This document shows, piece by piece, positions 1 through 51,339 of a DNA stretch of 64,000 nt. The notes under the pieces were generated by a model. That model was not told the DNA's origin and ran no database searches. It saw only the letters and a program-made list of their open reading frames with translations. A program made the translations under genes and the position numbers. Source of the stretch: a candidate division LCP-89 bacterium B3_LCP (lineage in GTDB: Bacteria; Electryoneota; B3-LCP); NCBI GenBank assembly GCA_005223185.1, contig NJBN01000007.1, positions 1 through 64,000 of the forward strand, read 5' to 3'. How positions within the stretch are numbered: position 1 is the first letter of the stretch; every line of letters begins with the position of its first letter.

Positions 1-174
1 ACATAGGGATACCTGATTAAAATTGGCTTGTTTATTATACGATTGAATTTGCCGAAGGCTCCCTATTGTTTTCAAAGAACTTACAAAATATCTATTGTTT
101 TTAATAGAATTATTCTCGGACAGACTCCTTGACCCGGAATCCAGTTGCTTATTGATTTGTCAGAGATTTCGAAA

Positions 175-939: not shown

Positions 940-950
940 CATGTATCTAT

Positions 951-1065
951 AGGGGGGGACAGACATTCTTACCTGTCGGCTTTAACTGCTTATTCTACAG
1001 TCAGGCAGGAATGCCTAACCTCCCCAGTAGCAATGCGGGGAGGACGGACATTCTTGTCTGTCAAC
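951..1065. repeat. G-family tandem palindromic repeat, about 1.3 units of roughly 75 nt (ggaCRgacattcttRYctgtc ... cagtcaggcaggaatgcctaacctcccc ... ggggagg)
   Basis: Direct internal repetition of ggacagacattcttacctgtc and ggacggacattcttgtctgtc; a near-identical permuted copy lies at 41561..41656. Confidence 0.6.
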
Positions 1066-1093
1066 TCTAACATAAAGACATTCAGTTAATATC

Positions 1094-1131
1094 CCCAAAA
1101 AAAGACGCTGATCTTTCGACCAGCGTCTTTT
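1094..1131 (-). terminator. Rho-independent terminator downstream of flagellin
   Basis: Hairpin aagacgctg-atctttcgacc-agcgtctt followed by a T-run on the minus strand. Confidence 0.7.
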
Positions 1132-1173
1132 GCAGGGTTTGCGTGAGTACACGCATCTTTGTGGTATGTGTGC

Positions 1174-2007
1174 TTATCCGACTAAACCCGCAATCATCTG
1201 CGGAATCATATTCGCCTGTGCTAACATTGCAACGCCTGACTGCATTAGTATCTGTGAACGGACAAATTCGGACATTTCTTGAGCAAAGTCAGCATCACGG
1301 ATCTGAGATTCAGAGGCGACAGCTCTCTCTCGTGCCGTCAATAACTGGCTGATGGTCCCTTGCAGCCGATTGACGTAGGATCCAAGGCGGGTGCGTTCGT
1401 TGTCCTTTCTATCTATGGCGATATCTATTGATCCTATGGCGTTCTGTGCACTGGTGGTAGTAGTCAAACCTGTGCCGGTCAGTCCCAGTGATGATATAGT
1501 CATGGAATTGAAATTAACGTAGTAGTAATCCTCGCTCTGGGCGTTGTAGGTTCCTATGTGGAACTTGATACCAGTAGCAGAGAAACTGCCATCAAGCAGG
1601 TACAGACCGTTATAGTTGGTCACCTGTGATATCCTGTTGACCTCTGATAGCAGCTGTTGATATTCAACATCCAGCGCCTGTCGGTCTGAATCGGTTAAAG
1701 ATCCATTCGATGATTCAATCGCCAATGCTCTCATGCGGGTCAAGGTCTCATCAAGGACGGATAAGGCTCCTTCTGCCGTCTGCATGAGGTTGATATTATT
1801 GTTAGCATTACGCTCGGCTTCTTCCATGGAAGCAATCTGCGCACGGAACCGTTCGGAAATAGCTAAACCGGCAGGATCATCCCAGGCGTTGTTAATGCGC
1901 AGTCCGGATGACAGGCGTTGAACCGCTCTATCCAGAACTAACTGTGTTGACCATAAATTCCTCTGAGCAGTCATCGACAGTATGTTATGGTTGATCCGTG
2001 TGCTCAT
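1174..2007 (-). CDS. fliC: Flagellin
   Basis: Conserved flagellin N-terminus (MSTRINHNILSMTAQRNL) and C-terminus (QSGVAMLAQANMIPQ); short central variable domain; 277 aa. Confidence 0.9.
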   Translation of the reverse strand: MSTRINHNILSMTAQRNLWSTQLVLDRAVQRLSSGLRINNAWDDPAGLAISERFRAQIASMEEAERNANNNINLMQTAEGALSVLDETLTRMRALAIESSNGSLTDSDRQALDVEYQQLLSEVNRISQVTNYNGLYLLDGSFSATGIKFHIGTYNAQSEDYYYVNFNSMTISSLGLTGTGLTTTTSAQNAIGSIDIAIDRKDNERTRLGSYVNRLQGTISQLLTARERAVASESQIRDADFAQEMSEFVRSQILMQSGVAMLAQANMIPQMIAGLVG

Positions 2008-2048
2008 TTAAAACCTCTCTTAATGATTCCATTTTGCCTTCAGCTATT

Positions 2049-2078
2049 CTATCGGCTTCTTTATAAAAGAACTTTAAC
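2049..2078 (-). promoter_or_regulatory. sigma-28 (FliA) type promoter for flagellin
   Basis: Minus strand reads TAAAGTT-N16-GCCGATAG about 45 nt upstream of the flagellin start, matching TAAA-N15-GCCGATAA. Confidence 0.55.
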
Positions 2079-2220
2079 CTTTTTTACAAATATTTTCAAA
2101 TAACACGACTATAGTGTTGTTATTGCAACAGTTAAAAACTTATGAATACTTAAAGTATCACCTGAAATAAACTACAACTGCACGTTTAAGTAAAAAATAT
2201 ATCCGCCGTTGGGCGGATTT

Positions 2221-2409
2221 GTTGTCCTGGTTTTTTCCTGACAGCGTCAGGTCACATCCGTCGGCTGACGGACAGGACCTGACGCAACGGGAACTTTTTG
2301 AGCGTCCCACTTGAGTGGGACAGCATAAATTAGCCCGGAAATTTATTTCCGGGCGTTGTGAGGCTGTTTAGACAAATGATTCTCATTCTATCCGAAGGAG
2401 TCCTATGAA
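2221..2409. repeat. Mosaic palindromic repeat, copy 1 (modules A, B, C, D)
   Basis: Hairpins tccgtcggctgacgga (A), gcgtcccacttgagtgggacagc (B) and cccggaaatttatttccggg (C), then motif ccgaaggagtcctatg (D); the same modules recur at 14166, 19590, 34075 and 55240. Confidence 0.7.
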
Positions 2410-2427
2410 CAGAGTGACATTAACAAA

Positions 2428-3132
2428 TCACCCCCCCACGAGAATACTGAACTGGAAGAAGGGCTGTGTCAAATCAAGTGAAGGAGCGTCATAGATATTA
2501 TCGCCGTTTATTGACCAACCAGATGAACTCAGATTTAATATGGGAACGTCAATTGATCCTCCCACTGCCAGCCAATCGAGCAGGTAATATTTCACCCCAA
2601 CCCGAGGCTGGATCATGAAGAAGGAATGGCTCAATTCTGATGAGATGCTATCCCCAGAACCGGTTTGTGAAGTGTAATTATTCCATATTTCACCCCAACT
2701 GACCGGGCTGTCGGTTTTTCTTAAACTTACGGACACGCTGCCCCAGCCCAGTGTGCCACCGGTGAAAAGCTCGAAATTCGACACTTCCAGCATCAGGTAT
2801 TCTATCAATATACCTCCCCAACCCATGCTGAATATGGCTTCGCGGGCGTAGCCGTTCTCGATGTCATTGACGCTCACAGAGCCGCCAAATCCCATACCGC
2901 CAATACGCAGACTGTTGGATACGTAACCGAATCCCTGACCACCATAGAGGAACATGTAGCCATCAAATTGAGGCATCCCCAACGCTTTCAATTCGGTATT
3001 AAGAGGTCCTAAATCAGGTTTAACGATATAGAAGCTGAAACCTCCCGCTCCCCCCTGAAATGAATTCCAGGCTGCTCCGACAGGCGAGCTAATTACTATG
3101 ATTGTCAGAGTAATAATCAGAATCGTTTTCAT
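2428..3132 (-). CDS. Secreted beta-rich protein, possible outer-membrane beta-barrel, unknown function
   Basis: Signal peptide MKTILIITLTIIVISSPVGAA, Gly/aromatic-rich alternating pattern, strong RBS ggagaggagag before this ATG; start moved to the internal Met of track ORF 2428..3171. Confidence 0.5.
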   Translation of the reverse strand: MKTILIITLTIIVISSPVGAAWNSFQGGAGGFSFYIVKPDLGPLNTELKALGMPQFDGYMFLYGGQGFGYVSNSLRIGGMGFGGSVSVNDIENGYAREAIFSMGWGGILIEYLMLEVSNFELFTGGTLGWGSVSVSLRKTDSPVSWGEIWNNYTSQTGSGDSISSELSHSFFMIQPRVGVKYYLLDWLAVGGSIDVPILNLSSSGWSINGDNIYDAPSLDLTQPFFQFSILVGG

Positions 3133-3216
3133 CTCTCCTCTCCCTTTTATAGAAGTCCTATATTGATACACATTTTGTTTAATTGACTCTGCTTTATGTG
3201 GGAAAGTTACAGAATA

Positions 3217-3957
3217 TCAGGAAAGTTCTTCTTTTAAAGCCTTCAATTCATCATCGGTGAGGTCCCTCCATTCACCCGCCTTCAGGTTTTTCAGTATTAA
3301 CCCGGACACGCTTACTCGGTGCAGTTTAGATACGTTAAGGTTTATCGTTTGCAGAGTCCTGCGTATCTGCCGCTTTTTTCCTTCAGTTAATATTACCTTT
3401 ATCTCATTGCTTCCCCGCAGTTCGATTTCCTTGAATTTGCTGGTCCCGTCATCAAGCTGAACTCCACTGCGAAGTTTTACCAGATGTGCCTCTTCGATTG
3501 CTTCATCTGTCTCTACCAGATACTCTTTTTCTTTCTGATAGGATGGGTGAGTCAATTTCTGGGCAAATTCACCATCATTGGTCAATAAAAGCAGCCCGGA
3601 AGTGTCCTTATCAAGTCTGCCAACTGGGAAGACTCTTTCAGGGACTTTCACCAGGTCCAGGATGATTTCCCCCTTTTCTCTGCCCGGGTTACAGGTGCAA
3701 AGCACGCCGGCAGGTTTGTTGAAGATTATGTAGCGTAAAATCTTCGGCGGGGAAACAAATTTCCCGCGTACTTTGACGCGGGAAATCTGTGAATCAATCC
3801 GTGTTTGGGGAGTCAGAACGATCTCCGAGTCAACTGTCACCCATCCGGCTTTGACATACTCCTCGCATTTCCTCCGGGAGGCAACACCGCAACGAGCCAG
3901 GTATTTGGCAATTTTCTCACCATCAGGCTGTTCGCTACGGTCGTCGGATCTTACCAA
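3217..3957 (-). CDS. rluB: Pseudouridine synthase, RsuA/RluB family, with S4 domain
   Basis: S4 motif KYLARCGVASRRKCEEYVKAG and catalytic motif GRLDKDTSGLLLLTNDG. Confidence 0.85.
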   Translation of the reverse strand: MVRSDDRSEQPDGEKIAKYLARCGVASRRKCEEYVKAGWVTVDSEIVLTPQTRIDSQISRVKVRGKFVSPPKILRYIIFNKPAGVLCTCNPGREKGEIILDLVKVPERVFPVGRLDKDTSGLLLLTNDGEFAQKLTHPSYQKEKEYLVETDEAIEEAHLVKLRSGVQLDDGTSKFKEIELRGSNEIKVILTEGKKRQIRRTLQTINLNVSKLHRVSVSGLILKNLKAGEWRDLTDDELKALKEELS

Positions 3958-4707
3958 CTACTTACCTTCCTGGTTCTTCATAAAAACCTGAAAGAGGTCT
4001 ATGGGAACCGGGAATACCACGGTGGAATTATTCTCTGACGCCACTTCTGACAGAGTCTGCAGGAACCTCAGTTGTAAAGCCATGGGGTGATCGCCTATTA
4101 TCGAAGCTGCTTCAGCCAACTTTGTGGAAGCCTGGAACTCACCCTCAGCGTGGATAACTTTGGCACGTCTCTCACGTTCCGCCTCGGCTTGTTTCGCCAT
4201 GGCGCGCTGCATTTCAGCAGGGAGATCCACATGTTTCACTTCCACTAAAGTCACCTTGATTCCCCAGGGGTCAGTATGAGCGTCCACTATTTCCTGCAAC
4301 GTCTTGTTGATCTTCTCCCTTGCAGATAGCAGATCATCGAGTTCGAATTGTCCCAGAACACTTCGCAGAGTCGTTTGTGCTAATTGACCTGTGGCGTACA
4401 GGTAATTTTCAACTTCCACGACAGCTTTGTTCGGTTCCATCACCCTGAAGTTGATAACTGCATTTACTTTGACTGAAACGTTGTCCTTGGTGATGATGTC
4501 CTGCGGGGGTACGTCCGTCACGATGGTTCTCAAGGAAATCTTACGCACACGATCGATGATGGGAATGATGATAATTAAGCCGGGACCTCTTGATCCTATC
4601 AACCTTCCCAATCGAAATATTACCGCACGTTCATATTCATTCAGCACCTTAATCGCTGAAATGAGCAGCAGCACTACCAAACCTATGAGTATAGCGAAAC
4701 CAGGCAT
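3958..4707 (-). CDS. SPFH/band-7 (stomatin-like) membrane protein
   Basis: N-terminal TM helix followed by an SPFH domain (VIFRLGRL ... coiled-coil [11 protein letters not shown]). Confidence 0.85.
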
Positions 4708-4746
4708 ATCTCCTCCATCTGTTTTTGTTTTTATTGCAGATTTATA

Positions 4747-5043
4747 TTAAATGCGTTTATCGATAATCAACCATGCTCCCAGGACTATAAGCGCCGCTGG
4801 CAGAAATGGTACGTTTAGATTGAACCAATCGAAATATTCACCCAATAGTACAAAACCAGCTATGACCAACACTATTCCCCAGAAAGGGGTATCATGCTTC
4901 TTAGTCACTTTAGCTGTAAATTTAGGTCCACTGGAATTCAATGAGGATAACTTTCCTTCAATTTTATCAGACAGCTCCTTGAACCGCTCTTCAACTTTAC
5001 TGCTCAGCTCTTCCAGCTTTTTTTCTAGATCACCCATTGTCAC
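4747..5043 (-). CDS. Small membrane protein with N-terminal coiled-coil, unknown function
   Basis: 98 aa; charged helical N-terminus then two TM helices; sits between the NfeD and stomatin genes. Confidence 0.45.
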   Translation of the reverse strand: MTMGDLEKKLEELSSKVEERFKELSDKIEGKLSSLNSSGPKFTAKVTKKHDTPFWGIVLVIAGFVLLGEYFDWFNLNVPFLPAALIVLGAWLIIDKRI

Positions 5044-5098
5044 GATTATTCTCCACTTAATACAATGACAGAAAGCACTTCATCACTATGAGGCTGTA

Positions 5099-5416
5099 TC
5101 AGGATTTCTTCGCAGCCCGAGCGGCTTTGGCTTTAGCTACACGCCGTTTTCTGTACCATTCACGCTGATATTTCAGGCGAGCTTCCCTGTGAGTCTGGTA
5201 GTAGTTCTTTAGATAGGGACGCCTCTTCTTGTATTGTCGCCGCTGTTTCTTCAGCAACTCTTCACGGTTATCCCAATAGTAGTCCCTGGTGACGGCACGA
5301 TAGCATTCCTTACATCTGGAACGATAAACCATCGATCCAGTTGCGGTTTTCTGAGTGTAGAAATTTCGAACTGGCAGCGTCCTGCCACAGAGATTACAAA
5401 CTTTTTCCTTTTTCAT
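5099..5416 (-). CDS. Highly basic zinc-ribbon protein, putative nucleic-acid binding
   Basis: CNLC-x24-CKEC zinc ribbon followed by a Lys/Arg/Tyr-rich tail (RRQYKKRRPYLKNYY ... KRRVAKAKAARAAKKS). Confidence 0.5.
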   Translation of the reverse strand: MKKEKVCNLCGRTLPVRNFYTQKTATGSMVYRSRCKECYRAVTRDYYWDNREELLKKQRRQYKKRRPYLKNYYQTHREARLKYQREWYRKRRVAKAKAARAAKKS

Positions 5417-5469
5417 GATCGGTACCTTATGCGTTTATTTATATTGATGATCTTCGTTATACGCTTTTC

Positions 5470-6786
5470 TTATTCCTTGAATTCTTCGACAATTAATAAG
5501 TTTCTCTCAGCCTTCTGGACTCTAATCTGAGATCCTTTTGGCAATTTCCCGACAGTTGATTTTGCATTCCATATTTCCCCCCTGACTTTTACTTTCCCCA
5601 CAGGATCAAGTTTCTCGATCACCTCGCCGGTTTCTTCAATCATGCCCTCTAAACCTGTGGTGGGACGCCGCTTCTGTGCTTTTATCGAAAGGGAGATCGC
5701 CACGAGGAAGAAGAGGACTGTGCCGATAACCCCTGGCAGGATGACTCCCCAGGATATCTCCACACCCGGAATTGGTGATTCAATAAGCATAACTGATCCT
5801 AAGATGAGTGATATGGTTCCCCCGATGGCGAGAACTCCGTAACTGACCACTTTTATCTCCAGAAGAAAGAGAATGATTGCCAAAACTATAAGCAATAAGC
5901 CCGCGACATTTATAGGCAGAGTCTGAAAAGCGAAGAAGGCTAAAATTAAGCATATACCACCTATAACGCCCGGCACTACAGTTCCCGGGTTGTACAGTTC
6001 GAAGAATAACCCGTACATGCCCAGCATCATCAGCACGTAAGCGATGTTGGGATCGCTGATTACTTCCAAAAACTGATCGCGCCATGTCCGGGAAATTTCC
6101 TCTAAGACGACGCCTGTTAATTCCAGTTTGCGATTTCCCAGCGGGAGCGCCACTTCACGTCCGTCCAGCATCACCAATAAACTGTCAACTGATGGCGCTA
6201 TCACGTCAATTACGCCTAATTCCAACGCTTCCGTTTCCGTGATGGACGCCGATTCACGCACTGCGCTTTCCGCCCAGTCAGCATTTCTGCCCTGCTTTTC
6301 GGCAATGGAGCGAATAAAAGCCACAGCATCATTGAGGACCTTCTCTTCCATCACTCCAGTTGTGTCATCTTCCTGCCCCATCCCCAGTGATACAGGGTGA
6401 GCAGCACCGATGTTAGTTCCCGGTGCCATAGCCGCAACATGAGCAGAAAGCGTAATAAAAACTCCCGCTGAACCCGCACGGGATCCGGAAGGAGACACAT
6501 AGACGATAACAGGAACGTCACTTGCTAAGATTGATTTGATGATGTCCCGCATCGATTCCATCAAACCTCCGGGTGTATCCAGTTGAATCAGAAGCGCTTC
6601 AGCTTCGCTATCGTTCGCTTCATCGATAGCTCTCTGGATGAACCGGGAACTGGCAGGATGGATAACGCCGTCTATTTCGATGTATTTCACCTGCTTGGCG
6701 CTGACGTCCTGCATAAAGATAATAATGGCAGCGAATAACGCAAGTGAAGATAGTAACTTCCTGCTGATGTTGATCACCATCATCAA
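5470..6786 (-). CDS. NfeD-like membrane-bound ClpP-class serine protease, long form
   Basis: Signal peptide, ClpP-like domain (YIEIDGVIHP ... GSRAGSAGVFI), multi-TM region and a C-terminal OB-fold; classic partner of stomatin. Confidence 0.8.
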   Translation of the reverse strand: MMMVINISRKLLSSLALFAAIIIFMQDVSAKQVKYIEIDGVIHPASSRFIQRAIDEANDSEAEALLIQLDTPGGLMESMRDIIKSILASDVPVIVYVSPSGSRAGSAGVFITLSAHVAAMAPGTNIGAAHPVSLGMGQEDDTTGVMEEKVLNDAVAFIRSIAEKQGRNADWAESAVRESASITETEALELGVIDVIAPSVDSLLVMLDGREVALPLGNRKLELTGVVLEEISRTWRDQFLEVISDPNIAYVLMMLGMYGLFFELYNPGTVVPGVIGGICLILAFFAFQTLPINVAGLLLIVLAIILFLLEIKVVSYGVLAIGGTISLILGSVMLIESPIPGVEISWGVILPGVIGTVLFFLVAISLSIKAQKRRPTTGLEGMIEETGEVIEKLDPVGKVKVRGEIWNAKSTVGKLPKGSQIRVQKAERNLLIVEEFKE

Positions 6787-6874
6787 TTTACTAATGATTA
6801 GCTACAGCGTTAAAATAAGCATAAATTACCTTCAGTTCAAGAATAAAATGAAGAAATTGTCAAGAATATCATCA

Positions 6875-8281
6875 TTAATAAATACGCAATATCTGGCTTA
6901 TTGTGTGAGCAGTTTCGGCAATGTCCTCATCCATAACAGCCTTTACATCCAGAAATAGGTAATCCCGACGCACGTACCCGATTATCGGTAATTCGGCTGT
7001 GCGCAACTCAGCAGCCAATTTTGAAACGGGGATTCCTCTGACCTTAATCTTTAGGGCAGCCGAAGGAAATTCATGCAGAGGTAACGCTCCTGATCCCAAT
7101 TGTCCGGTTGATTCGGTCAACAGAATCCGTACTTTTTCTGACAATTCAACCTGAGAAATTAAATCATATAACTGTTTTGCACGCCTCATCGCTTCACTCT
7201 GATCTTCAGATAACCTTTTCAACACCGGGTGTCTGCTGATAAACTTGTCTGGTTCAAGATAAATTCTCAGGGTTTCTTCCAGCAATGCCAGCGTAAACTT
7301 ATCTGGACGCAGAGCACGCATCATAGGATTCTTGCAGATTTTCCCAATCGTACCCGAATCTCCTACCAAAATACCGCATTGCGGACCACCCAGTACCTTA
7401 TCTCCGCTGAAAGTGGCAACGTGCACTCCACTTTTAACGCTTTCCTGCACAACCGGTTCATGAGGTAAACCTGACTTCTCCAAATCAATCAAGACACCAC
7501 CACCCAGATCGTGAATAACGAAAACACCCCGCTCTCTACACGCGGGTGCAATTTCCTCAATTTCCGCTTCGTGCACAAAACCTTTCACTCTGTAGTTACT
7601 GGAATGAGCTACTAGCACCGCTCTGGTTTTCGGCGTTATCGCTTCTGTATAATCTTCCAAATAGGTCCTGTTCGTTGTCCCCACCTCTACAAGTTTGGTG
7701 CCTGATTTTCGCATTATTTCCGGCAGGCGAAAGGAGCCGCCAATTTCAATCAATTGGCCTCGTGAAACGATGGTCTCCTTGCGGTACGCCAGCGTGTTAA
7801 GTGATAGCATCACCGCAGCGGCGTTATTGTTTACAACTGCAGCAGCATCAGCCCCGGTTAAGAAAGTGATCAGGTCTTCTAAAACGCACTGTCTATCGCC
7901 GCGCTTTCCAGTGAGCATATCAAGTTCGAGCGAACAGGCAGCTTTTACTCTGTCGAAGGCACGCTGATAAATATCTTCAACGAGTGGCGCTCGCCCCAAC
8001 CCTGTATGAAGAATTATACCTGTAGCGTTTATCACCCGCTTCAGGCGTGGTTTTAAGAAGACAGCTACCCGATCCTGCACAGATTGCACAAATTCATCCA
8101 GCGAAGGTGGATCTTCTCCCCTATCAAGAATCGCCTCCCGTGCTGCCTTGATGACGTCATTGCAGCACTTCTTCACTAAATCGTGCGAATACTCTATCGA
8201 GAGGTTCTGTAATGCCTGTGTCTCTAAGAGGCTGCCAACTTGCGGCAAGAATTTTAGTTTTTCATGTTGTTTCTTGTTCAT
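6875..8281 (-). CDS. selA: L-seryl-tRNA(Sec) selenium transferase (selenocysteine synthase)
   Basis: Full-length match to the SelA architecture including ILHTGLGRAPL and a PLP-fold core. Confidence 0.85.
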   Translation of the reverse strand: MNKKQHEKLKFLPQVGSLLETQALQNLSIEYSHDLVKKCCNDVIKAAREAILDRGEDPPSLDEFVQSVQDRVAVFLKPRLKRVINATGIILHTGLGRAPLVEDIYQRAFDRVKAACSLELDMLTGKRGDRQCVLEDLITFLTGADAAAVVNNNAAAVMLSLNTLAYRKETIVSRGQLIEIGGSFRLPEIMRKSGTKLVEVGTTNRTYLEDYTEAITPKTRAVLVAHSSNYRVKGFVHEAEIEEIAPACRERGVFVIHDLGGGVLIDLEKSGLPHEPVVQESVKSGVHVATFSGDKVLGGPQCGILVGDSGTIGKICKNPMMRALRPDKFTLALLEETLRIYLEPDKFISRHPVLKRLSEDQSEAMRRAKQLYDLISQVELSEKVRILLTESTGQLGSGALPLHEFPSAALKIKVRGIPVSKLAAELRTAELPIIGYVRRDYLFLDVKAVMDEDIAETAHTISQILRIY

Positions 8282-18319: not shown

Positions 18320-19534
18320 TCAGGTTATGCTCAAAGCAGGGATTTTATGCTTTTTACCGATTTCGGCAGCCTCCTCTCCTATATGAACGATAGCTGTGAT
18401 GTCGTTTTTATCGAGTTTATTCAATTCAATATTGCCATGTACACGCCACTCTCTCTCCTTTGTCCAGTCCTGTTTTCCCGAACCAGCCATCTGAAAGAAG
18501 GAGCGGTCGCCTTCACTTAAGGAATCATACTTAGCAATGTCGCCGTATAGCGCTGGTCTAGCGCCCAACGCCTCCAGTCTCGACCTCTTGATGGCTATAC
18601 CATAAGGCTCAAATGTCCAGCGTCTTAAGCCCACTCGCCACCTGATCAATTTCGACAGATCTTCCGGTGGCCTGGCAGTGAAAGGGACCACGGCATATCC
18701 ACCGCGTATCATTCTGGTGGAAGCGCGAATTACTTTTTCTGAAAAGATGCGCATGAGCGTTTCCATTCCTTGATTGTCAGATGGTTTACTCTCCATCATA
18801 CGCCCGAAATGTTCACATCTCTTCTCATCGGGCCAGGGACCTACGCAGGAACGCGTCCAATGGATCAGATACTCCTCTGGCTTGTACCATTCTGGTAACG
18901 CAATTCTCTCAGGTAGTTTAGGCCTTCTGTTTGGAGGGGATTTCTTATATTGAACTTCGAGTTCCCTGGAAATATCAGTTTCTGGCAGTTCCTCATGAGA
19001 AAGATATCTTTCGAAATTGCCCCCCGGTCGTATGGAGTTTTTGATAAGTCGCTGGCTTAAGGCGAAAACCCAGTTATCCCGCAGAGCATTGGTCTCGGTA
19101 TGCTTCATACTTCTCCTTATAACCAAAGGACGAATTGCTAAGGTTTTAGCATCTTCCAGACCTAGACCAATTATAGCTTTGGTGCGCAGAACGTTGAAAT
19201 TCTGAGCACTACCCGGAGGGAATATCAGAATTATGGGAAGACCGATTCTATTTCCCGCCCATGTCAGGAAATCCCAGGAAGTTGTGCCTAAGCTTGTTAC
19301 CAGGACGTTATTGCGCAAATCCTCGCTGCGAAGAGAGTTGAGTGTGTTGGCTATCCACTCATCGTGTTTATTCATGCGCGGTGACTGGCGGGAATTCAAG
19401 ATGGTAAATCGGCTTTTTTTAAGAAGATCAGTGGGACCGCAGAGGACGATAGGTGAGGATTCTTGAAGGAAAAAAGGGTGTGGTATTACAGCAGGGAAGT
19501 CATTCTGACTCATGCAGAACGCAAGCTTGTGCAT
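18320..19534 (-). CDS. Hypothetical protein with a divergent DprA/Smf-like (SLOG superfamily) Rossmann domain and an uncharacterised C-terminal domain
   Basis: Residues ~40-110 (FTILNSRQSP ... NVLVTSLGTTSWDFLTWAGNRIGLPIILIFPPG) follow the DprA strand-helix-strand pattern but lack GxARGID; the C-terminal half (DWTKEREWRVHGNIEL) has no recognisable family. Confidence 0.45.
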   Translation of the reverse strand: MHKLAFCMSQNDFPAVIPHPFFLQESSPIVLCGPTDLLKKSRFTILNSRQSPRMNKHDEWIANTLNSLRSEDLRNNVLVTSLGTTSWDFLTWAGNRIGLPIILIFPPGSAQNFNVLRTKAIIGLGLEDAKTLAIRPLVIRRSMKHTETNALRDNWVFALSQRLIKNSIRPGGNFERYLSHEELPETDISRELEVQYKKSPPNRRPKLPERIALPEWYKPEEYLIHWTRSCVGPWPDEKRCEHFGRMMESKPSDNQGMETLMRIFSEKVIRASTRMIRGGYAVVPFTARPPEDLSKLIRWRVGLRRWTFEPYGIAIKRSRLEALGARPALYGDIAKYDSLSEGDRSFFQMAGSGKQDWTKEREWRVHGNIELNKLDKNDITAIVHIGEEAAEIGKKHKIPALSIT

Positions 19535-19750: not shown

Positions 19751-19757
19751 AACTTTG

Positions 19758-20114
19758 TGGAGACGGCGGGAATCGAACCCGCGTCCGAAATAGTGACCGA
19801 AGGACCCGCTACAGGCTTAGTCGCTGTTTAGTTCTCGCTAACCATCAAATCCAGCGACAGATCAGATGGGAAGCCAGCCTCGGAATTCTCACGTCAGGCA
19901 TTGAGGCGCTGCTTGACGCCAGCCCATCATTATGACGCCCGCATCCCAACTCGATGGGCAAGAATCGGGTCGGACGTAGCCGCTTCTTTATTAAGCAGCT
20001 AAGGCATAGCCGTGATTATCGGCATTTGTGATTGTGGCGGGTTTATACGGGGTCACGCCATCCCCGACCTGCTGATCCAGCTTCCTCCTATCCCGTCGAA
20101 ACCAAGTCGTCCCC
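19758..20114 (-). ncRNA. ssrA: tmRNA (SsrA)
   Basis: 5' GGGGACGACTTGGTTTCGACGGGAT and 3' GGTTCGATTCCCGCCGTCTCCAC(A); acceptor stem includes the G3-U pair; internal tag reading frame ...ADNHGYALAA then TAA TAA; about 357 nt. Confidence 0.9.
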
Positions 20115-20312: not shown

Positions 20313-21731
20313 ATGCACATTAGAAACAGAATGATCACAGTGATCATAGGTTGCTGCCTGTTATTGGCAGCGGGGATCCCGTTGCAGACAGGTTACGCTT
20401 ACACCCACACAGTTTTAGTGGAAGAAGCAACTGCTACCTGGTGCGGCTACTGCCCCAGTCATGTATCGGCTCTTGATGAGATGTACTCTTCGGGGCTCTA
20501 TGATTTCTACTATGTTACGCTTGTAACCGACATGAATACTTATGCTTACAATCGAGTTATCGGTGAATTAGGTGTAGGTGGCTATCCGACTTCTTTGGGC
20601 GACGGTGGATACCAGCAGGTCGTCGGTTGGGTACCGAACAGTTCATCCATGATCAACATGGTCAACAATTGTGGCAATCGTGCAGTCGCAGATATCGATC
20701 TTAATCTGGGCGTCACCTGGGATGGAAATGCACAGATCAGTATAGATCTCGATGTGATCAATAACGATCCATCCATGTACTTAGGACATCTGCACGCGTA
20801 TGTAACAGAAAAAGATTCCCGCTGGTACGTCTCAGGCAATCAGTATCACTTTGCCATGATCGGCGATTATGCCTTAAATGAAGATATCTTCGTTGCCGCA
20901 GGCGGCACTGCACAATATTCAACCACCTGGAACGGTAACACCTATGGATTCGGCGATATCGTTCCCGAAAATATCACAGTCATCGTTGCAGTGTTCAGTG
21001 GTGGAAATGTCTGGACAGATGAAACAGTAGCTATGCAGCCCGGTCTTCCGGTTGGCGACGTAACTGTTACTCTGACACCTTACGGCACACCTATCGTAAT
21101 TCCGGCTAACGGTGGTGCTTTCGATTTCAACATTGCGGTAACCAACAATGAAACTTCACCCTGGTCATTTGCAGTCTGGACGGACGTTACTCTGCCAAAC
21201 TCATCCATCTTCGGTCCCATTATCGGGCCGTTGACAATTACCATACCGGCAACAACCACCATCAATCGTGACCGTTCTCAGAGCATTCCTGGTGGAGCTC
21301 CTGCAGGTACTTATTCCTACAACGCCTATGTAGGCAACTACCCGGATGATATCTGGAACTCTGATACCTTCACTTTTGAAAAATCTACTGTTGGCGATGG
21401 GTCTGATTTCATTGGGGAATGGATAACTTCCGGTGATTCATTCACTACTGGAAATGTAGCATCTGTAGAAGATATTACTTTACTACAAAACTACCCCAAT
21501 CCCTTCAACCCAGAAACAACTATCAGCTACATCATACCGGAAGCAACTGATGTAAACCTCACTGTTTATGACGTAAGCGGTCGGCAGGTCGCAGAATTAG
21601 TTAGCGGCTACCGGAATGCCGGTCATCACGACGTAACCTGGGATGCTTCTTCCCTATCGGCTGGTGTTTACATATATCGTCTATCGGCTGGTGAGTTCAA
21701 CGCCAGTGGAAAGATGGTGCTTCTCAAGTAA
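20313..21731 (+). CDS. Secreted protein with N-terminal thioredoxin-like CxxC domain and T9SS C-terminal sorting domain
   Basis: Strong RBS aaaggag; signal peptide; EEATATWCGYCPSH motif; C-terminus QNYPNPFNPETTISY ... KMVLLK. Confidence 0.7.
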   Translation: MHIRNRMITVIIGCCLLLAAGIPLQTGYAYTHTVLVEEATATWCGYCPSHVSALDEMYSSGLYDFYYVTLVTDMNTYAYNRVIGELGVGGYPTSLGDGGYQQVVGWVPNSSSMINMVNNCGNRAVADIDLNLGVTWDGNAQISIDLDVINNDPSMYLGHLHAYVTEKDSRWYVSGNQYHFAMIGDYALNEDIFVAAGGTAQYSTTWNGNTYGFGDIVPENITVIVAVFSGGNVWTDETVAMQPGLPVGDVTVTLTPYGTPIVIPANGGAFDFNIAVTNNETSPWSFAVWTDVTLPNSSIFGPIIGPLTITIPATTTINRDRSQSIPGGAPAGTYSYNAYVGNYPDDIWNSDTFTFEKSTVGDGSDFIGEWITSGDSFTTGNVASVEDITLLQNYPNPFNPETTISYIIPEATDVNLTVYDVSGRQVAELVSGYRNAGHHDVTWDASSLSAGVYIYRLSAGEFNASGKMVLLK

Positions 21732-22005: not shown

Positions 22006-22302
22006 TCACATCACAGGCTTAGATAAAGTCTTTATCAGACCGACAATCCAACAGACCGCAGAGGCAATTTCAACTATTCTAAAAATCACAATTGATAGTG
22101 AAGGAAATACCAAGAAGATAATAACATCGAGCAGGTAGATACCTCCCGCTGCACGAAACCAGTCGTTCTCCATGAGTATAGGTTTGGTGGAGGTCGGCCG
22201 GGCACGCATGGTGAAGATGGGTTTACCGGTTATGAGCAAATAGACGGCATATACACCGGTAAGGGCTATAACGCCGCAGGGAAGGACATCTAGTGCTTCC
22301 AT
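22006..22302 (-). CDS. Small integral membrane protein, unknown function
   Basis: 98 aa with three predicted TM helices; starts 8 nt after the ferredoxin-tail remnant. Confidence 0.45.
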   Translation of the reverse strand: MEALDVLPCGVIALTGVYAVYLLITGKPIFTMRARPTSTKPILMENDWFRAAGGIYLLDVIIFLVFPSLSIVIFRIVEIASAVCWIVGLIKTLSKPVM

Positions 22303-22310
22303 TTTTCCTA

Positions 22311-22376
22311 CTATCCCCTCCCCACCATCTCAATCGCTCCTTCCGGGAAGACGTCCACACAAACGCCGCAGCCGCG
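22311..22376 (-). pseudogene. Remnant of a 4Fe-4S ferredoxin-domain gene (3' tail only)
   Basis: Encodes RGCGVCVDVFPEGAIEMVGRG, paralogous to the C-terminus of 23152..23700 (CYGCGVCVDVCPEGAIDMVGR); differences are mostly synonymous apart from Cys-to-Phe and loss of the stop codon. Confidence 0.55.
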
Positions 22377-22387: not shown

Positions 22388-23118
22388 CTAATCCTGACAT
22401 TTTCGCACGATAAAGGTTGAATCTGTTCTGCGCCGGATACCAGCAAGGCGCATGAGTGTTCCGATACGTTTCTCTTTAATTCCTCTATCCACTAAGTGGC
22501 ATCGTGTCATGCCAGAGATCATGTCTTCAAGCTGCTCATTCGTGAAATATGATACAACAGGTGCGCCGATGTTATTCCATTTGCCTAGAATCTGGATCCG
22601 GTTGGATGTAACTTTTGTCACGAACCTCTTAACATAAAACACGACTCCCATCATGAAGACAGGATAGAAGACAGGCTCTATAATAATCAGATGACCACCG
22701 GGTTTTAACAAATTCAAGGCATGAGTGACGGCTAATGATGCATTGTCCCGAGATTGCCTTCGCGTTTTACCTACCAAGTGATGGAGAACCGCTGCCAAGA
22801 TGGCAAAATCAAATTTTCAGTAATACTCGCCGCGAAATCATAATCCAGTATGGATCCCCGGAGGGTATGGCACGTGAGTTTTTGTTGCATTATTTCGAGG
22901 TAATTTTCGCTTATGTCGATTCCAGAGAAACACTCCATAGGAGTGTTATCCTTGAAATATTTGAGGATATTACCTGTGCCGCAACCGATATCGATGAGAG
23001 AACTATCCGGCTGGCAGTGTCCATTGATAAATTTGCAAGCGTACTCAAGCCGTTCCACGGAATATTCCGGTGTAAGCACATCGAAATAATTTTTTGAAGC
23101 TCTGTCAAATGTTTCCAT
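22388..23118 (-). pseudogene. Class I SAM-dependent methyltransferase disrupted by a 29-nt insertion (frameshift)
   Basis: N-terminal ORF carries motif I LIDIGCGTGN and DYDF; the C-terminal ORF carries AILAAVLHHL ... LKPGGHLIIIEP in another frame; removing 22803..22831 restores DYDF-AILAAVLHHL in frame. Confidence 0.7.
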
Positions 23119-23151
23119 AAAAATATAACTACTTTATAAGAAGATCGTTTA

Positions 23152-23700
23152 TCACCGCCCCACCATATCAATCGCTCCTTCCGGGCAGACGTCAACGCAG
23201 ACACCGCAGCCGTAACATTCATCTGCAACAACCGTCAACTCTTCTCCATCCCACTCCCGCGCTTTGAAGAAACAGAATTCCTCACATTCGCCGCAATGCG
23301 TACACAATTCCTCATCTGTCCGTTCTATGTACACTCCTTTGTCACAGGGGCTGGGTACATCGTCCGTGAAGAAATCACAGCAGCAGTCACAGCAGAAACA
23401 TATACCTTCCGTAACTGTCTTGATGTCGTTATCTCTGAACGGCCGCGGCACCAGGTGAGTTTCTTCAGATTCCTTCAAAATCTTCAGCACTTCATCTTTG
23501 GATACCGGTCGCAAACCCGTTCCCGTTGCCGCCGTCTTCTCCTTAAACTGAAGGCATAGAAATATTCCCGATCTTTTGCAGGAGCCGCGTTCTTCCCGGC
23601 ATTCACAATTAGAAACCCAGTAAAGATCGTGTCCATCCACAATCTCACGTGCTTCAGCGATAGTGCATACAAAATGGAAGTTTGGCTCTGATGTGGACAT
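23152..23700 (-). CDS. Cysteine-rich Fe-S protein with a C-terminal 2x[4Fe-4S] ferredoxin domain
   Basis: CTHCGECEEFC and CYGCGVCVDVCP ferredoxin motifs plus N-terminal Cys clusters (NCECREERGSC, CFCCDCCCD); start set at MSTSEPN after RBS gaggaa. Confidence 0.65.
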   Translation of the reverse strand: MSTSEPNFHFVCTIAEAREIVDGHDLYWVSNCECREERGSCKRSGIFLCLQFKEKTAATGTGLRPVSKDEVLKILKESEETHLVPRPFRDNDIKTVTEGICFCCDCCCDFFTDDVPSPCDKGVYIERTDEELCTHCGECEEFCFFKAREWDGEELTVVADECYGCGVCVDVCPEGAIDMVGR

Positions 23701-23772: not shown

Positions 23773-26136
23773 TTATCCACATTTGGTAAAACCACATGAA
23801 CGGCACACCAGACAGCCATCCTCATGCGCGATCGGCCCGCCGCAATCCGGACACTGATCGGGGATTTCCAGCAGGTTAGTATCCTTTTCAAACTTCGGTT
23901 CCTTTACTTTTATGGGAGGCTTATTGTTGGAATTGGCTTCCTGACGCTGTATGTATCGTTCCAGGGCTTTGGCGATGGCATCAGGCGCTGAAGTTATCAG
24001 AGTGCCGTTTTCCCACACGGGATTGGGCCCTGAGATTCCTTTCAACTGTTTTACGATGTTATCTGGTGCGATTCCCGATTTCAGACAGAGTGAAATCAGG
24101 CGGGAAATCGCCTCGGATTGAGCCGCTAAATTTCCCCCCGCTTTACCGATGGAGGTAAACACTTCGCAAGGACCGTGTTCATCCGAATTGATGGTTACGT
24201 AGGAAGGACCATCACCGGTATTGACTCTTTCGGTCATGCCGTAGGTAACTGCCGGTCTCTTCCTCGGTGAAAGTTTCGGTCTGCTGATTTCCTTTTTTGT
24301 TTCCTGTTTTTTAGCGCTATCACCCCTGTGCATGACCTGTTCGCTCCGTGAACCATCCCGATATACGGTCAATCCTTTGCAGCCCAAATCATAAGCCAGC
24401 ATGTAAGCACGCCTGACGTCTGTGGTAGTGGCGTTGTGAGGAAAATTAATTGTTTTGGATACGGCATTGTCAGTATGTTTCTGGAAAGCTCCCTGCATGC
24501 GCACATGCCAATCGGAAGCGATTTCATGCGAGGTTACAAAAGTGCGCTTTAGAGGTTCAGGAATCTCTTCGATTTCTTCCAAGGATTTGCACGCAGATAT
24601 TTTCTTAATCAGTTCTTCGCTGTATATTCCAGCTTTTTGCAACGCCTTCTCGAAATGGTGATTTACGTAGAGTAATTCCTGACCATCCATAACTTTTTTC
24701 ACGTAAACCAGGCTGAACACGGGTTCAACACCTCCGGAACAGTCAGCGATCATGGATAACGTGCCGGTAGGCGCTATCGTGGTGATGGTGGCGTTGCGGA
24801 TGGGCGTATCGTAAATTGATTTATCAAAATTAGGAAAAGTCCCTCTAACTGACGTCAGTTCTTTTGATGCTTCGCGTGCTTTTCCTAAGATGAACTCCAT
24901 TACCTCCTCACCTAACTTGATTCCTTCCGCCGAGTTGTAAGGTATGTCAAGCTGGTAGAGCAGATCTGCGAAACCCATCACCCCCAGTCCAATCTTGCGG
25001 TTGGCTCTGGTTATTTCAGCGATTTCCGGCAAGGGATACTTATTAACTTCAATCACATCATCCAGGAAGCGCACAGACAGCTTAATTATCTGCGCTAACT
25101 TCTCCCAATCGATGGCGTCATCGACTACCAGGTGGTCTAAGTTTATAGAGCCTAAATTGCACGATTCATAAGGCAGCAACGGCTGTTCACCACAGGGATT
25201 GGTGGATTCAATTCTTCCCACCGATGGCGTGGGGTTGTCCCGGTTGATCTGATCTAAAAATACTATCCCCGGTTCGCCGTTACTCCAGGCATTATCCACA
25301 ATTTTATCGAAGAGTTTCTTAGCTGATACATCTCGGACAAATTCACCGGAACGGGGTTCTTTTAGTTTAAATTTCAGGTTATTCTTCACCGCATCCATAA
25401 ACTCATCGGTAACCGCAACAGAAATGTTAAAATTGTTAAGCGAGTGTTCACCTTTTTTGCAGTCAATGAATTCTTCAATATCGGGATGATCTACATGCAG
25501 AATAGCCATATTAGCGCCGCGTCTGGTCCCCCCCTGTTTTATCGTCTCGGTCGCGGCATTGAAGACGGTCATGAATGAAACCGGTCCCGAAGCCGTTCCC
25601 GCCGTGGATTTAACCACGCTGTTTTTCTCACGCAGTTTGGAGAAGGAAAATCCCGTTCCTCCCCCACTTTTGTGAATCAAAGCAGTGTATTTTATGGCGT
25701 TAAAAATGCCCTCCATGCTATCTTCAATAGGCAGGACAAAACAAGCGGAAAGTTGCCCCAGTTCCCGGCCGGCATTCATCAAAGTTGGGGAATTGGGAAT
25801 AAAATCAAGTGAAGCCATGAGGTGGTAAAAGGCATCTTCAATGTCCTGGCAGTCTTTATCACTCAAATTCTTGTTAAATACCTTCTCCGCGGAGGCAACA
25901 TGCTTAGCAACCCTTCTGAACATCTCTTCAGCAGTTTCGATAATCTCGCCTGTATCATTCTTAGCCAGATAACGGCGTTTGAGAACTGCCAGACTGTTAT
26001 CGGAATAGCTGTACTTCTCCTGTCTTTTTATTTTCGGCAGAGTGATTTTATCTGTTTTCTCGTCTTTGCGTTGTACCGTAGAGGACGTGAAAAGATCATT
26101 TTCTCTCTTGCCGACAGAAGACGTTCTGGCTAACAT
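23773..26136 (-). CDS. nrdJ: Class II (adenosylcobalamin-dependent) ribonucleotide reductase
   Basis: NPCGEQPLLPYESCNLGSINL active-site region; C-terminal zinc ribbon CPDCGG ... CLVCRSCG; 787 aa. Confidence 0.9.
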   Translation of the reverse strand: MLARTSSVGKRENDLFTSSTVQRKDEKTDKITLPKIKRQEKYSYSDNSLAVLKRRYLAKNDTGEIIETAEEMFRRVAKHVASAEKVFNKNLSDKDCQDIEDAFYHLMASLDFIPNSPTLMNAGRELGQLSACFVLPIEDSMEGIFNAIKYTALIHKSGGGTGFSFSKLREKNSVVKSTAGTASGPVSFMTVFNAATETIKQGGTRRGANMAILHVDHPDIEEFIDCKKGEHSLNNFNISVAVTDEFMDAVKNNLKFKLKEPRSGEFVRDVSAKKLFDKIVDNAWSNGEPGIVFLDQINRDNPTPSVGRIESTNPCGEQPLLPYESCNLGSINLDHLVVDDAIDWEKLAQIIKLSVRFLDDVIEVNKYPLPEIAEITRANRKIGLGVMGFADLLYQLDIPYNSAEGIKLGEEVMEFILGKAREASKELTSVRGTFPNFDKSIYDTPIRNATITTIAPTGTLSMIADCSGGVEPVFSLVYVKKVMDGQELLYVNHHFEKALQKAGIYSEELIKKISACKSLEEIEEIPEPLKRTFVTSHEIASDWHVRMQGAFQKHTDNAVSKTINFPHNATTTDVRRAYMLAYDLGCKGLTVYRDGSRSEQVMHRGDSAKKQETKKEISRPKLSPRKRPAVTYGMTERVNTGDGPSYVTINSDEHGPCEVFTSIGKAGGNLAAQSEAISRLISLCLKSGIAPDNIVKQLKGISGPNPVWENGTLITSAPDAIAKALERYIQRQEANSNNKPPIKVKEPKFEKDTNLLEIPDQCPDCGGPIAHEDGCLVCRSCGFTKCG

Positions 26137-26355: not shown

Positions 26356-27096
26356 TTACTCTTCTATAAGTTTAGGGAGAACTTCTCCTGCTTTTTCGTG
26401 AACGATCCATTTCGCTAGATGATCCACTGGCGTGGGATCGACGTTGATGATGGCAAGCTCGGCCCCCGCTTCCACGGCGACCACAGGCGCCTGCGCGGCG
26501 GGATAAACGACCAATGAACTTCCTACAACCAGGAATAAAGAACATTGACGAGCCAGGTCAAAAGCTTTTTCAATCGCGCCTGGCGGGAGCATTTCACCGA
26601 AAAACACAATGTCCGGACGCAAAATACCTCCACAATCTGTGCAGATCGGGGGATTTGCCTTTTCCACAGCTTCCTCAGCTTCAGGTAAGTTATATCCTTT
26701 ACGGCATTTCATGCAGTGAAATGCGCGGGATGATCCGTGCAATTCAATTACATTTTGCGAACCAGCCACTTGATGAAGACCATCGATATTCTGGGTTATG
26801 ACAGCGTTTACCTTGCTCTTCTCTTCAAGTTCTGCCAGAGCAATATGAGCTGAGTTTGGCTTAGCATCATGCAGCAACGGTCCCCGCGTGTCCTTGAAGA
26901 AAGACCAATAGTAAGAAGGATCTTTCTCAAAATATGCTATCGAGGCATACTTATCAGGATCGTATTTTGTCCAGAATCCATCTGTGCCCCGGTAGGTGGG
27001 TATTCCGGATTCTTCGGATACTCCCGCTCCGGTAAAGGCAACTACATTGCCCTTGGCAATAGCTTCACACAAGCCTGATAAATCATCTGATGGCAT
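26356..27096 (-). CDS. cobB: NAD-dependent protein deacylase (sirtuin/CobB)
   Basis: GAGVSEESGIPTYRG and a Zn-binding CxxC ... CxxC module. Confidence 0.85.
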   Translation of the reverse strand: MPSDDLSGLCEAIAKGNVVAFTGAGVSEESGIPTYRGTDGFWTKYDPDKYASIAYFEKDPSYYWSFFKDTRGPLLHDAKPNSAHIALAELEEKSKVNAVITQNIDGLHQVAGSQNVIELHGSSRAFHCMKCRKGYNLPEAEEAVEKANPPICTDCGGILRPDIVFFGEMLPPGAIEKAFDLARQCSLFLVVGSSLVVYPAAQAPVVAVEAGAELAIINVDPTPVDHLAKWIVHEKAGEVLPKLIEE

Positions 27097-44079: not shown

Positions 44080-47000
44080 ATGTGTATCCCCCGTATGACC
44101 TTCCTTCATATCGTTGTAGCAGTTGTTACCTGCAGTTTTCTAACATCAGTTTCAAACGCTCTGGTGCCGATCCCCAAAGAAATGGTTGAGATGCGTATCA
44201 GCGGCAACCCAGCAAACGGTTCCATCATCCATCTGGATTTTGCAGAATACTGGCAATCTGCCGGTGAAATTACCGGTGATGAAGCGCTCAGTTTCTGGGT
44301 GACACTGCCCGACCTGGGTCAACCTTCGGCCAAAGTACGTGTTTTTACTTCTGATGGCATTTTACATACAATTTCAGAGTGCGCCCAAATAGGGGAACCT
44401 GCAATCATTCGGGGAGTCCGCGTTGCCTCTGTGACGATACACCCCGTCATACAGGGAGATTCCGGTTCAGAAGCAGTCGAAGAAATGGATATAATGATAT
44501 CCGCTTCCGGCACCGGAATAAACGAAGTTTATCAGGATAGACGATCACAGGCTTTCGATGGAATAATCAGCTCCTTTGTAGTGAATCCACCAGGTGTAAA
44601 CGCCACGGATGATTTTGAACAGGAACACATGCTGATAATATGCCCGGATTTTGCCCAGGAGATAATCACGCCTTTCGCAGAATGGAAGCGCCGCAAGGGG
44701 CTGGAAGTAACGCTCTCGACATTGACGGAAATTGGCATCACAGCCGACGATTTTGAAGGGATGAAGGATTACATCCAGGAAGCGTACGACACCTGGCTAA
44801 ACCCACCCGATTTCGTCCTGCTTGCGGGCGATGAAACCGTACTCCCAGTCAGAGCGGACTGGACTGACGATCCCCACACGATGTTTTCAACCGCTTCCGT
44901 TCCGGGTACCTACTTAGATGATAACTACTTCGCCTGCGTTGATGGATCGGATTTCTTCCCGGATATTATCTTAGCGCGTTGGCCTTTACCCAATGAAGGC
45001 TATTCCTATGCCTATGTGTCCGCAAAGACTATGCGTTATGAAATGGCTCCAACTTTGGACCAAACAGATTGGTATCAGCACTCTGCGGTTACTGCTCAGG
45101 GCCCACTATATGATCCCACAAACCTGACTCAACGTGAAACTAAACTTTACACTAAGGATCTTATGTTGAACTTCGGATTTGCCGAGGTCGATACGCTCTT
45201 CGATCCTTATTCACCAGACCAACTTGTGCAGTGGGTAAATGACGGTTTGAGTTATGTTAACCACCGCGGCGCAGGTTGGAGTTTCGGTTGGGCTGGGAAT
45301 AATTTCTATATAGATCATGTACTGGAATTACAGAATTCCTTCATGCTTCCCGTTGTGACCGGTATCGGTTGTGGTGTGGGACTCTTCGGTGATCCCGGCA
45401 TCTGCTTCGGAGAAGCCTGGATGTGGGTTGTTGGCACTATGACCAACCATCGCGGTGCTATTGCGTTTATAGGTCCAGGTTGGAACACGCATACCTTTTA
45501 CAATGATTCCCTTGATATTGGACTCTATGAATCGATCTTCGTAGAATCAGAACCACGAATAGGAGCATCCCTAATTGACAGCAAGCTGTTCATGTATGAT
45601 GCCTTCGATGATTACATTCCTCTTGATCCGGACATAGAGGAAATACTGCGAGTGGCATTCAACCAGTATTATCTCTTCTCCGATCCAGAACTGAAACCCT
45701 ACAACAACGTCCCTGCTGGATTGCAGACAGCAGAAACAATTCCCGTAGCACTGGGACAGGGTAGCTTTTCCCTGACTTTTACCATTCAAGACGGCGCTGG
45801 CTTGCCCTTTGAAGGTGCCCAGGTCTGCCTCTACCACCCGGAAGATTTTCAATCTGTTGATCTCACCGATGCCAACGGCGAGGTAGAGCTGGATTGGGAT
45901 ACCAACACTGAATCTTCCTTCGTTTATTTCACGGTTACTGCACACAATCACGCCCCTATAGTTGATAGCATAGCAGTAATAGGTGATCAGGCTTATGTGC
46001 TACACTATGACTTCGAACTTGATGATTCTATGGGTGGAAACGGAGATGGAGGCATATCCCCGGGCGAATCAGCCGACTGGATCGAGACAGTTAGAAACTG
46101 GGGATTGAATGATGCATCAGAAGTTAATGCCATCTTGACCAGCCTGAGTCCGACAGCAATCGTAATACAGAACAGCTCATACTTCGGTGACATTCCTGCA
46201 GAAGCCACCATGATGGGAACTCCGAATTTCGTAATTTCAGTCGATCCGGAAAACTATACAGTTGGGGATTCTCTGGAGTTCCAGATAGACGTCTCCGATG
46301 CATTGGATTCCTGCTGGACCTCTTATGTGGACGTACCCCTGGTAACACCTATATTAAGCTACATTTATGCAGCGCCTGACATTTATACCAATGGACTGAT
46401 AGACCGAGGTGAAACTTGCGAAATGTTCATCGGTGTTTATAACAACGGTTTCGTTGACATAGATGATGCCGTCCTAGAACTTCACACTGATGATCCTTAC
46501 ATCGAAATAATAGACGGCACGATTGACATAGGTCCTTTTAATGCGGGTTCAATGTACCTGAGCTACTATGCTTCTCCGCAGGATTCCTTCATAGTGAGTG
46601 CCAGCTTGTACGCGCCTATGTACTATGAGGCTGAATTCTGGATGAAGATCAGTTCAGAACAGGCAACCTACTTCTATGAAGATTCGGTTTCCTTTGTTCT
46701 TCCCATAGGGCAAATCTTTGAAGGCGACCCCACATTCGATTCCCTGGAAACCTACTTCGGTTATGAATCGCTGGATACCTTATACGAAGAATGCCCAACC
46801 TACGAATGGTTCGAGATCGATCCTGATTCGGGTGGTCCGGGATATGTCCTCCCATTCTCCTATGAAACACAAACATTGAAGATCGAACTTCCCTTCACGT
46901 TCACGTATTGGGGTGAAGATTTCGATAGCTTGACTGTGAGCGCCGACGGTTGGATCATGCCGGGGGTAACATCTGCAGTCGCACCTGATTACCAGCACTT

Positions 47001-50461: not shown

Positions 50462-50470
50462 TTCTTCGCG

Positions 50471-50875
50471 TTATTTGAAGCGAGTTGAATAGTTAATACG
50501 GAGTGCGTACGCGTCTCGTAACTGCTCCTGTATGTCGCTGACCAGCCCCATTTTCACTTCCTTATCTATCTTCAATGAGACGATCAGCCGCAGGTTAGCC
50601 GCGTATTTCTCACCGACGATCTGCGAGATGGAACTGACCGGCACGATCTTATCATCAATGGAAATACGGCTGTTCTTATCCGTCCAAACGTATGTGATGT
50701 TGCGTTTGGCTTCTACTTTTTCCGTGGATCGAGCCGCTGGAGTAAGTATGGGAAGACCGCGGAATTCCTTGAATACCGTTGTGACCATGAAGAAGATAAT
50801 CAGCATGAAGATGATATCCGGCATCGAAGCGGTCGGAATAGAAGCGTCGGCTCCTTGTTTCTTTTCGAATTTCAT
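50471..50875 (-). CDS. exbD: ExbD/TolR biopolymer transport protein
   Basis: Single N-terminal TM helix (IIFMLIIFFMVTTVF) plus a periplasmic domain. Confidence 0.85.
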   Translation of the reverse strand: MKFEKKQGADASIPTASMPDIIFMLIIFFMVTTVFKEFRGLPILTPAARSTEKVEAKRNITYVWTDKNSRISIDDKIVPVSSISQIVGEKYAANLRLIVSLKIDKEVKMGLVSDIQEQLRDAYALRINYSTRFK

Positions 50876-50881
50876 AACTGA

Positions 50882-51307: not shown

Positions 51308-51339
51308 GCTTTTTTTCGATTTGCACGGATTATTTCTAA

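Follow-up and report, generated by a model that had tools for sequence, protein, structure and literature searches.

Within the window, by which we mean the whole 64,000-nucleotide stretch of DNA that was analysed, two overlapping open reading frames (ORFs) on the minus strand are the halves of a single class I SAM-dependent methyltransferase gene, separated by the loss of one base. An ancestral GAA AAA TTY (Glu-Lys-Phe) lost one A, most simply by shortening of an A5 run to A4 at 22814-22817. We conclude that this is an ordinary frameshifted gene in a partly eroded clade-specific cluster, and that it is likely either a pseudogene or the product of a one-base assembly error. The gene and its parts are as follows.

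22388..23118, minus strand: frameshifted class I SAM-dependent methyltransferase gene, whole; 731 nt, or 732 nt and 243 aa with one A restored
22816..23118, minus strand: N-terminal part in frame 1, residues 1-101, delimited by alignment to homologues
22388..22816, minus strand: C-terminal part in frame 2, residues 102-243, KFDFAILAAVLHHLVGKTRRQSR ... RRTDSTFIVRKCQD, stop codon at 22388-22390
22811..22817, minus strand: lesion site, minus-strand AAAATTT (plus strand AAA 22811-22813, TTTT 22814-22817)
22802..22830, minus strand: 29 nt called an insertion by an earlier note on this DNA; native DNA that encodes residues 96-105, one base short

Read in frame 1, the gene encodes motif I (LIDIGCGTGN), GIDIS, LRGSILD and the helix YDFAAS, and its last native residues are ITE. 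Past residue 101 this frame runs for 14 codons, NLILPSWQRFSITW, to a stop at 22771-22773. The resulting ORF (22771..23118, minus strand) has 115 aa, contains LIDIGCGTGN and DYDF, and ends in GSILDYDFAASITENLILPSWQRFSITW. The second ORF (22388..22798, minus strand) lies in a different frame, reads ...AILAAVLHHLVGKTRRQSR...LKPGGHLIIIEP... and includes AILAAVLHHL; its C-terminus agrees with the family consensus RRTDTTxVxRK in the family alignment. The mechanical TTG start of this ORF is at 22798, and frame 2 is open farther upstream, where it is closed by a TGA at 22817-22819, with KFDFAILAAVLHHL directly after. The uninterrupted reading frame of a class I methyltransferase is thus absent here, the frame changing within 22811-22817. 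Frame translations and Pfam matches upheld the view of the earlier note that both ORFs belong to one class I methyltransferase with its halves in different frames. They also agree with its dismissal of selenocysteine recoding, which we reject as well: the TGA at 22817-22819 arises merely from AC-TGA-AAA read out of frame.

We located the lesion by aligning the DNA with the orthologous loci of the two nearest relatives for which DNA could be read, the closest (L001; JGI Ga0452216_033503, cluster at 2953-7600) and the next (L083; SRR31155647_596066, cluster at 2-3665). The alignment is gapped at a single base, which falls in the Lys codon: ACT GAA AA- TTT GAT TTT GCC in the window stands against GCT GAA AAA TTC GAT TTT TCC in L001 and TCG AGT AAA TTC GAT TTT GCC in L083 (aligned strings: ACTGAAAA-TTTGATTTTGCC in the window, GCTGAAAAATTCGATTTTTCC in L001 and TCGAGTAAATTCGATTTTGCC in L083). 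Adding one A restores ...ITEKFDFAILAAVLHHL..., and a one-base shift within the run GAAAATTTG joins both halves into a 243-aa protein, ...DYDFAASITEKFDFAILAAVLHHL.... A family alignment of 41 sequences has 23 invariant columns, and the protein repaired in this way keeps all of them; a chain of PDB entry 3dtn aligned across the repaired junction with a one-residue gap only.

The earlier note had explained the broken frame by a 29-nt partial tandem duplication, the deletion of which was said to restore the protein. The string that it quoted is indeed present, at 22802..22830 rather than at 22803-22831; the offset of one base is harmless because deletion of either 29-nt string yields an identical protein. 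Removing the 29 nt does produce an open frame of 233 aa, but not the true protein, since 10 native residues are lost. These are residues 96-105 of the repaired methyltransferase (AASITE-K-FDF). Among the best 120 of 369 homologues, 119 have 10 residues across the disputed segment and one has nine; the closest relatives read ...AEKFDFSILAAVLHHL and ...SSKFDFAILAAVLHHL there, and the closest of the homologues listed read LRGSILDNEFVETIAEKFDFSILAAVLHHL and LRGSILDNDFAESISSKFDFAILAAVLHHL in the protein alignment. In the structural model of the repaired protein, beta3 spans residues 84-87, a helix spans 93-98 and beta4 spans 103-109. Residues 96-105 belong to the Rossmann core because they are modelled from helix 93-98 into beta4. 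The orthologous DNA aligns across all 29 nt, interrupted solely by the 1-nt gap.

The two repairs also differ in how well they match known families. In all seven Pfam methyltransferase families matched by both, the one-base repair outscored the 29-nt deletion by 5-10 bits:

Methyltransf_12: one-base repair 47.7 bits, 29-nt-deletion repair 40.9 bits
Methyltransf_11: one-base repair 46.9 bits, 29-nt-deletion repair 36.5 bits
MTS: one-base repair 33.9 bits, 29-nt-deletion repair 23.4 bits

Tandem Repeats Finder reported no tandem repeat at 22650..22980, even at score 30, and a separate repeat search did not report a duplication at the 29-nt site. The 29-mer is identical to the 29-mer upstream of it at merely 13 of 29 positions, a value equalled by 4.3% of positions within the gene. 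The partial repetition of neighbouring sequence on which the duplication had been based is real as a resemblance at nine of 12 positions (tatgatttcgcg and tttgattttgcc). Of the 679 12-mers in the gene, 3 match another 12-mer 20-40 nt away at this level; the pair in question lies 29 nt apart. It is no duplication, and the likeness exists because the two stretches encode native, family-conserved motifs, ...LD-x-x-F... and ...FDF.... We conclude that the duplication model, to which we assign next to no probability, is refuted, and that the lesion is a single-base deletion.

Among 5.8 billion proteins searched there were 369 homologues at E <= 1e-5, the best of them 71% identical over 98% of the length. 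The best 120 of the 369 are 220-356 aa long, mostly about 240-255 aa. The repaired protein scored above the Pfam cutoffs (in parentheses) of Methyltransf_12 with 47.7 (30), Methyltransf_11 with 46.9 (21.2), Methyltransf_25 with 44.2 (27), Methyltransf_31 with 43.5 (27) and Methyltransf_23 with 42.4 (27). It reached no curated NCBIfam cutoff; the best model was CpaM (corrinoid protein-associated methyltransferase, NF043040), which has a cutoff of 180 bits and was matched at 41.5 bits. Like other class I Rossmann-fold SAM methyltransferases, it has motif I (LIDIGCGTG), an acidic residue ending beta2 (GID), LD after beta3 and an FDF...LHHL beta4 motif. In the family alignment, G45, C46 and G47 of motif I (LIDIGCGTGN) and D68 of GID are invariant. 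The model (pLDDT 86, pTM 0.84) has the alternating beta and alpha elements of a seven-stranded Rossmann-like fold, and many class I methyltransferases of known structure matched it in Foldseek at probability 1.00. The fold matches are generic, including METTL6, Ecm18, NodS, BioC and MM_2633 at TM 0.52-0.66. Unlike generic class I methyltransferases, the protein has conserved C-terminal motifs of its own, namely VFYP..., WNNIGAPVVSY(F/Y)TNE and RRTD. Judged by these features, the gene belongs to an uncharacterised class I methyltransferase subfamily with proteins of about 240 aa.

A frameshifted gene could still yield enzyme by recoding, or its halves could work as a split enzyme; together we give these two readings very little credence. 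Recoding would mean that ribosomes shift by -1, in a programmed or tolerated way, at A_AAU_UUG (codons AAT TTG of frame 1 at 22810-22815, with A 22816 ahead), which would produce some full-length enzyme (...ITENLDFAIL...). The sequence left by the deletion fits the pattern X_XXY_YYZ, a 0-frame stop follows soon after and the downstream frame is fully intact. In its formal fit and its nearby 0-frame stop, the site resembles programmed -1 sites such as dnaX A_AAA_AAG and those of IS element transposases. It differs from them in that the shift is kept in no orthologue, no downstream structure rises above chance and the slippery sequence is weak. The best 120 of 369 protein homologues are all single-frame at the site, as are the orthologous loci in L001 and L083, and none of 26 metagenome loci (L003-L028) is split there. 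The comparison with orthologues proposed by the earlier note thus uncovered no second case of the two-ORF arrangement. The 83 nt downstream fold at -16.5 kcal/mol, no better than shuffled sequences (z = +0.39), and the heptamer itself is a trivial by-product of losing one A from GAAAAATTT. In the A site, UUG slips poorly. We conclude that programmed -1 frameshifting is unsupported and that the lesion site is not a member of this class. A variant of the same idea, phase variation at the A/T run, was rejected: both transcriptional slippage and contingency-locus phase variation need longer runs than 4-5 bases. Frameshifting and its variant are, in our estimate, highly improbable.

On the split-enzyme reading, each ORF would be translated on its own and the two polypeptides would come together as an active methyltransferase. 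In its favour, neither half is damaged, and the second ORF has its mechanical TTG start at 22798. This TTG, however, lies inside strand beta4 (after KFDFAI), and starting there would remove the conserved D104; the DNA upstream of the TTG shows no ribosome-binding sequence. In the model, the cut would run through the central beta-sheet of the Rossmann fold, and neither the best 120 of 369 homologues nor the orthologous metagenome loci include a split orthologue. We regard a split enzyme as extremely improbable.

The surroundings of the gene bear on whether the deletion is real. The neighbouring features in the window are as follows.

26356..27096: Sir2
23773..26136, minus strand: NrdJ, vitamin B12-dependent ribonucleotide reductase; NF006417 at 1164 bits against a cutoff of 961
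23152..23700, minus strand: Fer4-1, intact, 182 aa from ATG; matches Pfam Fer4 families; upstream partner of the methyltransferase
22311..22376, minus strand: Fer4-2 stump, the last ~21 codons, roughly 66 nt; RGCGVCVDVFPEGAIEMVGRG and stop
22006..22302, minus strand: small membrane ORF, 98 aa, downstream neighbour; 44% identical to the corresponding L001 stretch

In L001 the order is Sir2, NrdJ, Fer4 (185 aa), methyltransferase (250 aa), Fer4 (183 aa) and a small membrane ORF; in L083 it is NrdJ, Fer4, methyltransferase, Fer4 and a small ORF. A third contig (P0003) has Fer4, the methyltransferase and then a truncated ORF, and it probably also carries the arrangement NrdJ/Fer4-1/methyltransferase/Fer4-2/small membrane ORF. 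Sir2, NrdJ, Fer4-1, the methyltransferase and the membrane ORF follow one another in the window as in the relatives, with gene order and orientation alike. Identity between the window and L001 is 71% for the methyltransferase, 68% for Fer4-1 and 71% for NrdJ DNA. Distant family members do not lie beside Fer4 genes, which is why we consider the cluster clade-specific. What lies next to them differs, with RmuC and dCTP deaminase beside one member and glycosyltransferases beside a second, and therefore no function can be inferred from context. By its gene order, NrdJ/Fer4/methyltransferase/Fer4 is a conserved, uncharacterised cluster of this clade.

The Fer4-1 protein of the window has a Cys-rich N-terminal part and a C-terminal 2x[4Fe-4S] ferredoxin domain, and it is 51% identical to Fer4-2 of L001. 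Fer4 proteins of the cluster, about 185 aa long, contain the motifs CxC and CFCCDCCCD and end in the 2x[4Fe-4S] domain; their N-terminal ~125 residues matched no Pfam family or solved structure. In L001 the homologue of the 98-aa membrane ORF (7343-7597) is called as 46 aa, and the similarity runs on in frame beyond a TAA stop (...RIAGEL, stop, IVVFFLP...). From this reading-through of the similarity, the small membrane gene of L001 may itself be interrupted or mis-sequenced.

The window departs from L001 and L083 at two adjacent genes: the methyltransferase has its 1-nt deletion, and Fer4-2 is cut to its last ~21 codons. In the DNA alignment, both relatives have about 480 nt of Fer4-2 that the window lacks. 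In the C-P-E motif of the stump, Phe (TTC at 22347-22349) stands in place of the conserved cluster-ligand Cys. The stump also explains a 63-nt direct repeat, 87% identical, that flanks the methyltransferase (22312-22374 and 23150-23212), which represents two paralogous Fer4 3' ends and not an insertion footprint. Together with an upstream ATG at 22398-22400, the stump forms a 29-codon mini-ORF, MSGLGKGKRGCGVCVDVFPEGAIEMVGRG and stop.

We consider it probable, with appreciable doubt, that the lesion is real, an inactivating mutation that the organism acquired recently. One A would have been lost from a short homopolymer, turning ancestral GAA AAA TTY into GAA AA TTT. Residue 101, which just precedes strand beta4, would then be the last one translated in the native frame, and a stop would follow 14 codons on. 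The predicted product, a 115-residue fragment with motif I, is presumably inactive because it would be without beta4-beta7 and the family-specific C-terminal region. The ancestral cluster would have been NrdJ/Fer4-1/methyltransferase/Fer4-2/small membrane ORF, with Fer4-2 destroyed by the ~480-nt deletion. Since Fer4-2 is also destroyed, selection on the part of the cluster formed by the methyltransferase and Fer4-2 appears to have relaxed, and this part appears to be in decay; two adjacent lesions favour real decay of the module. The evidence that ties the methyltransferase lesion causally to the loss of Fer4-2 is circumstantial; Fer4-2 could have been lost long ago, with the methyltransferase still functional afterwards. 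As in bacterial pseudogenes formed by single-base homopolymer indels, an A5 run loses one base, a premature stop follows, the rest of the sequence is intact and a neighbouring gene of the cluster is degraded. Compared with such pseudogenes, nothing about this case is unusual.

The other reading that we take seriously, though we think it unlikely, is that the organism has A5 and an intact gene and that the homopolymer is called one base too short in the window. The lesion lies exactly within a homopolymer run, and such runs are the classic site of indel errors; the closest relative, L001, has A5 at this very position. Apart from the missing base, the gene has no further stops and keeps its invariant residues (23 of 23) in both halves, with no decay elsewhere in it. 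A remainder so pristine is equally expected from a consensus or assembly error in a functional gene. Against an under-call, the run is short (5 to 4). In 53 kb of intact ORFs in the window there are 122 A/T and 35 G/C runs of at least 5 bases, including runs of 6-7, and these 157 runs contain no other frame break, from which we conclude that the window assembly is not error-prone at homopolymers. About 50 long ORFs in the window are unbroken, among them those of 1212, 986 and 955 aa, and a search of the window for other broken genes, as a sign of error-prone assembly, found none. The neighbouring Fer4-2 deletion, moreover, shows that the locus is really degenerating: a stump with a Cys-to-Phe change is beyond any homopolymer error. 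Exact-protein look-ups of the first methyltransferase ORF, Fer4-1 and the Sir2 neighbour found no second assembly of the organism. A second copy was likewise absent from the GTDB species representatives in a peptide-pattern scan (sole match 30% identical) and from the JGI metagenomes in an exact 28-mer scan.

A two-gene annotation, or one of a gene with a 29-nt insert, is wrong for these ORFs. We suggest that a single annotation cover both, as a methyltransferase gene or pseudogene frameshifted by a 1-nt lesion at 22814-22817, and that the repaired 243-aa sequence be used for comparative work. The case also illustrates that in-frame repair by eye can mislead where a simpler 1-nt fix exists, and that homologue lengths decide. 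That Fer4-2 and the methyltransferase are both lost, and Fer4-1 and NrdJ both intact, could mark the methyltransferase and Fer4-2 as a functional pair. They might then form, in this uncultured lineage, a redox-partnered methyltransferase module linked to the B12-dependent ribonucleotide reductase, and this genome would be a natural knockout; alternatively, A_AAU_UUG might keep up a low level of full-length enzyme through -1 shifting. We offer both ideas as speculation and consider them improbable.

Several other features of the window were seen in passing. A tmRNA gene lies at 19755-20114 on the minus strand (Rfam, 193 bits; ARAGORN tag peptide ADNHGYALAA) and fills most of the 778-nt gap between the ORFs at 18320..19534 and 20313..21731. 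The second of these ORFs encodes a 472-aa protein (20313-21731, plus strand) with a type IX secretion C-terminal sorting domain, Por_Secre_tail in Pfam. By eye, the tail of a 1212-aa protein (44080-47718, plus strand) is similar to Por_Secre_tail, and a GH172 protein in L001 also has this domain. Such sorting domains point to an uncultured bacterium that is FCB-group-like (Bacteroidota-related). At 49805-51972 on the minus strand we noted, by eye, genes for an ExbB/TolQ-like protein (210 aa), two ExbD-like proteins (141 and 134 aa) and a TonB-like protein (218 aa). These short adjacent ORFs were considered as another split gene and rejected, the genes being intact. GtrA-like genes, the other cluster of small ORFs in the window, also appeared intact by eye.
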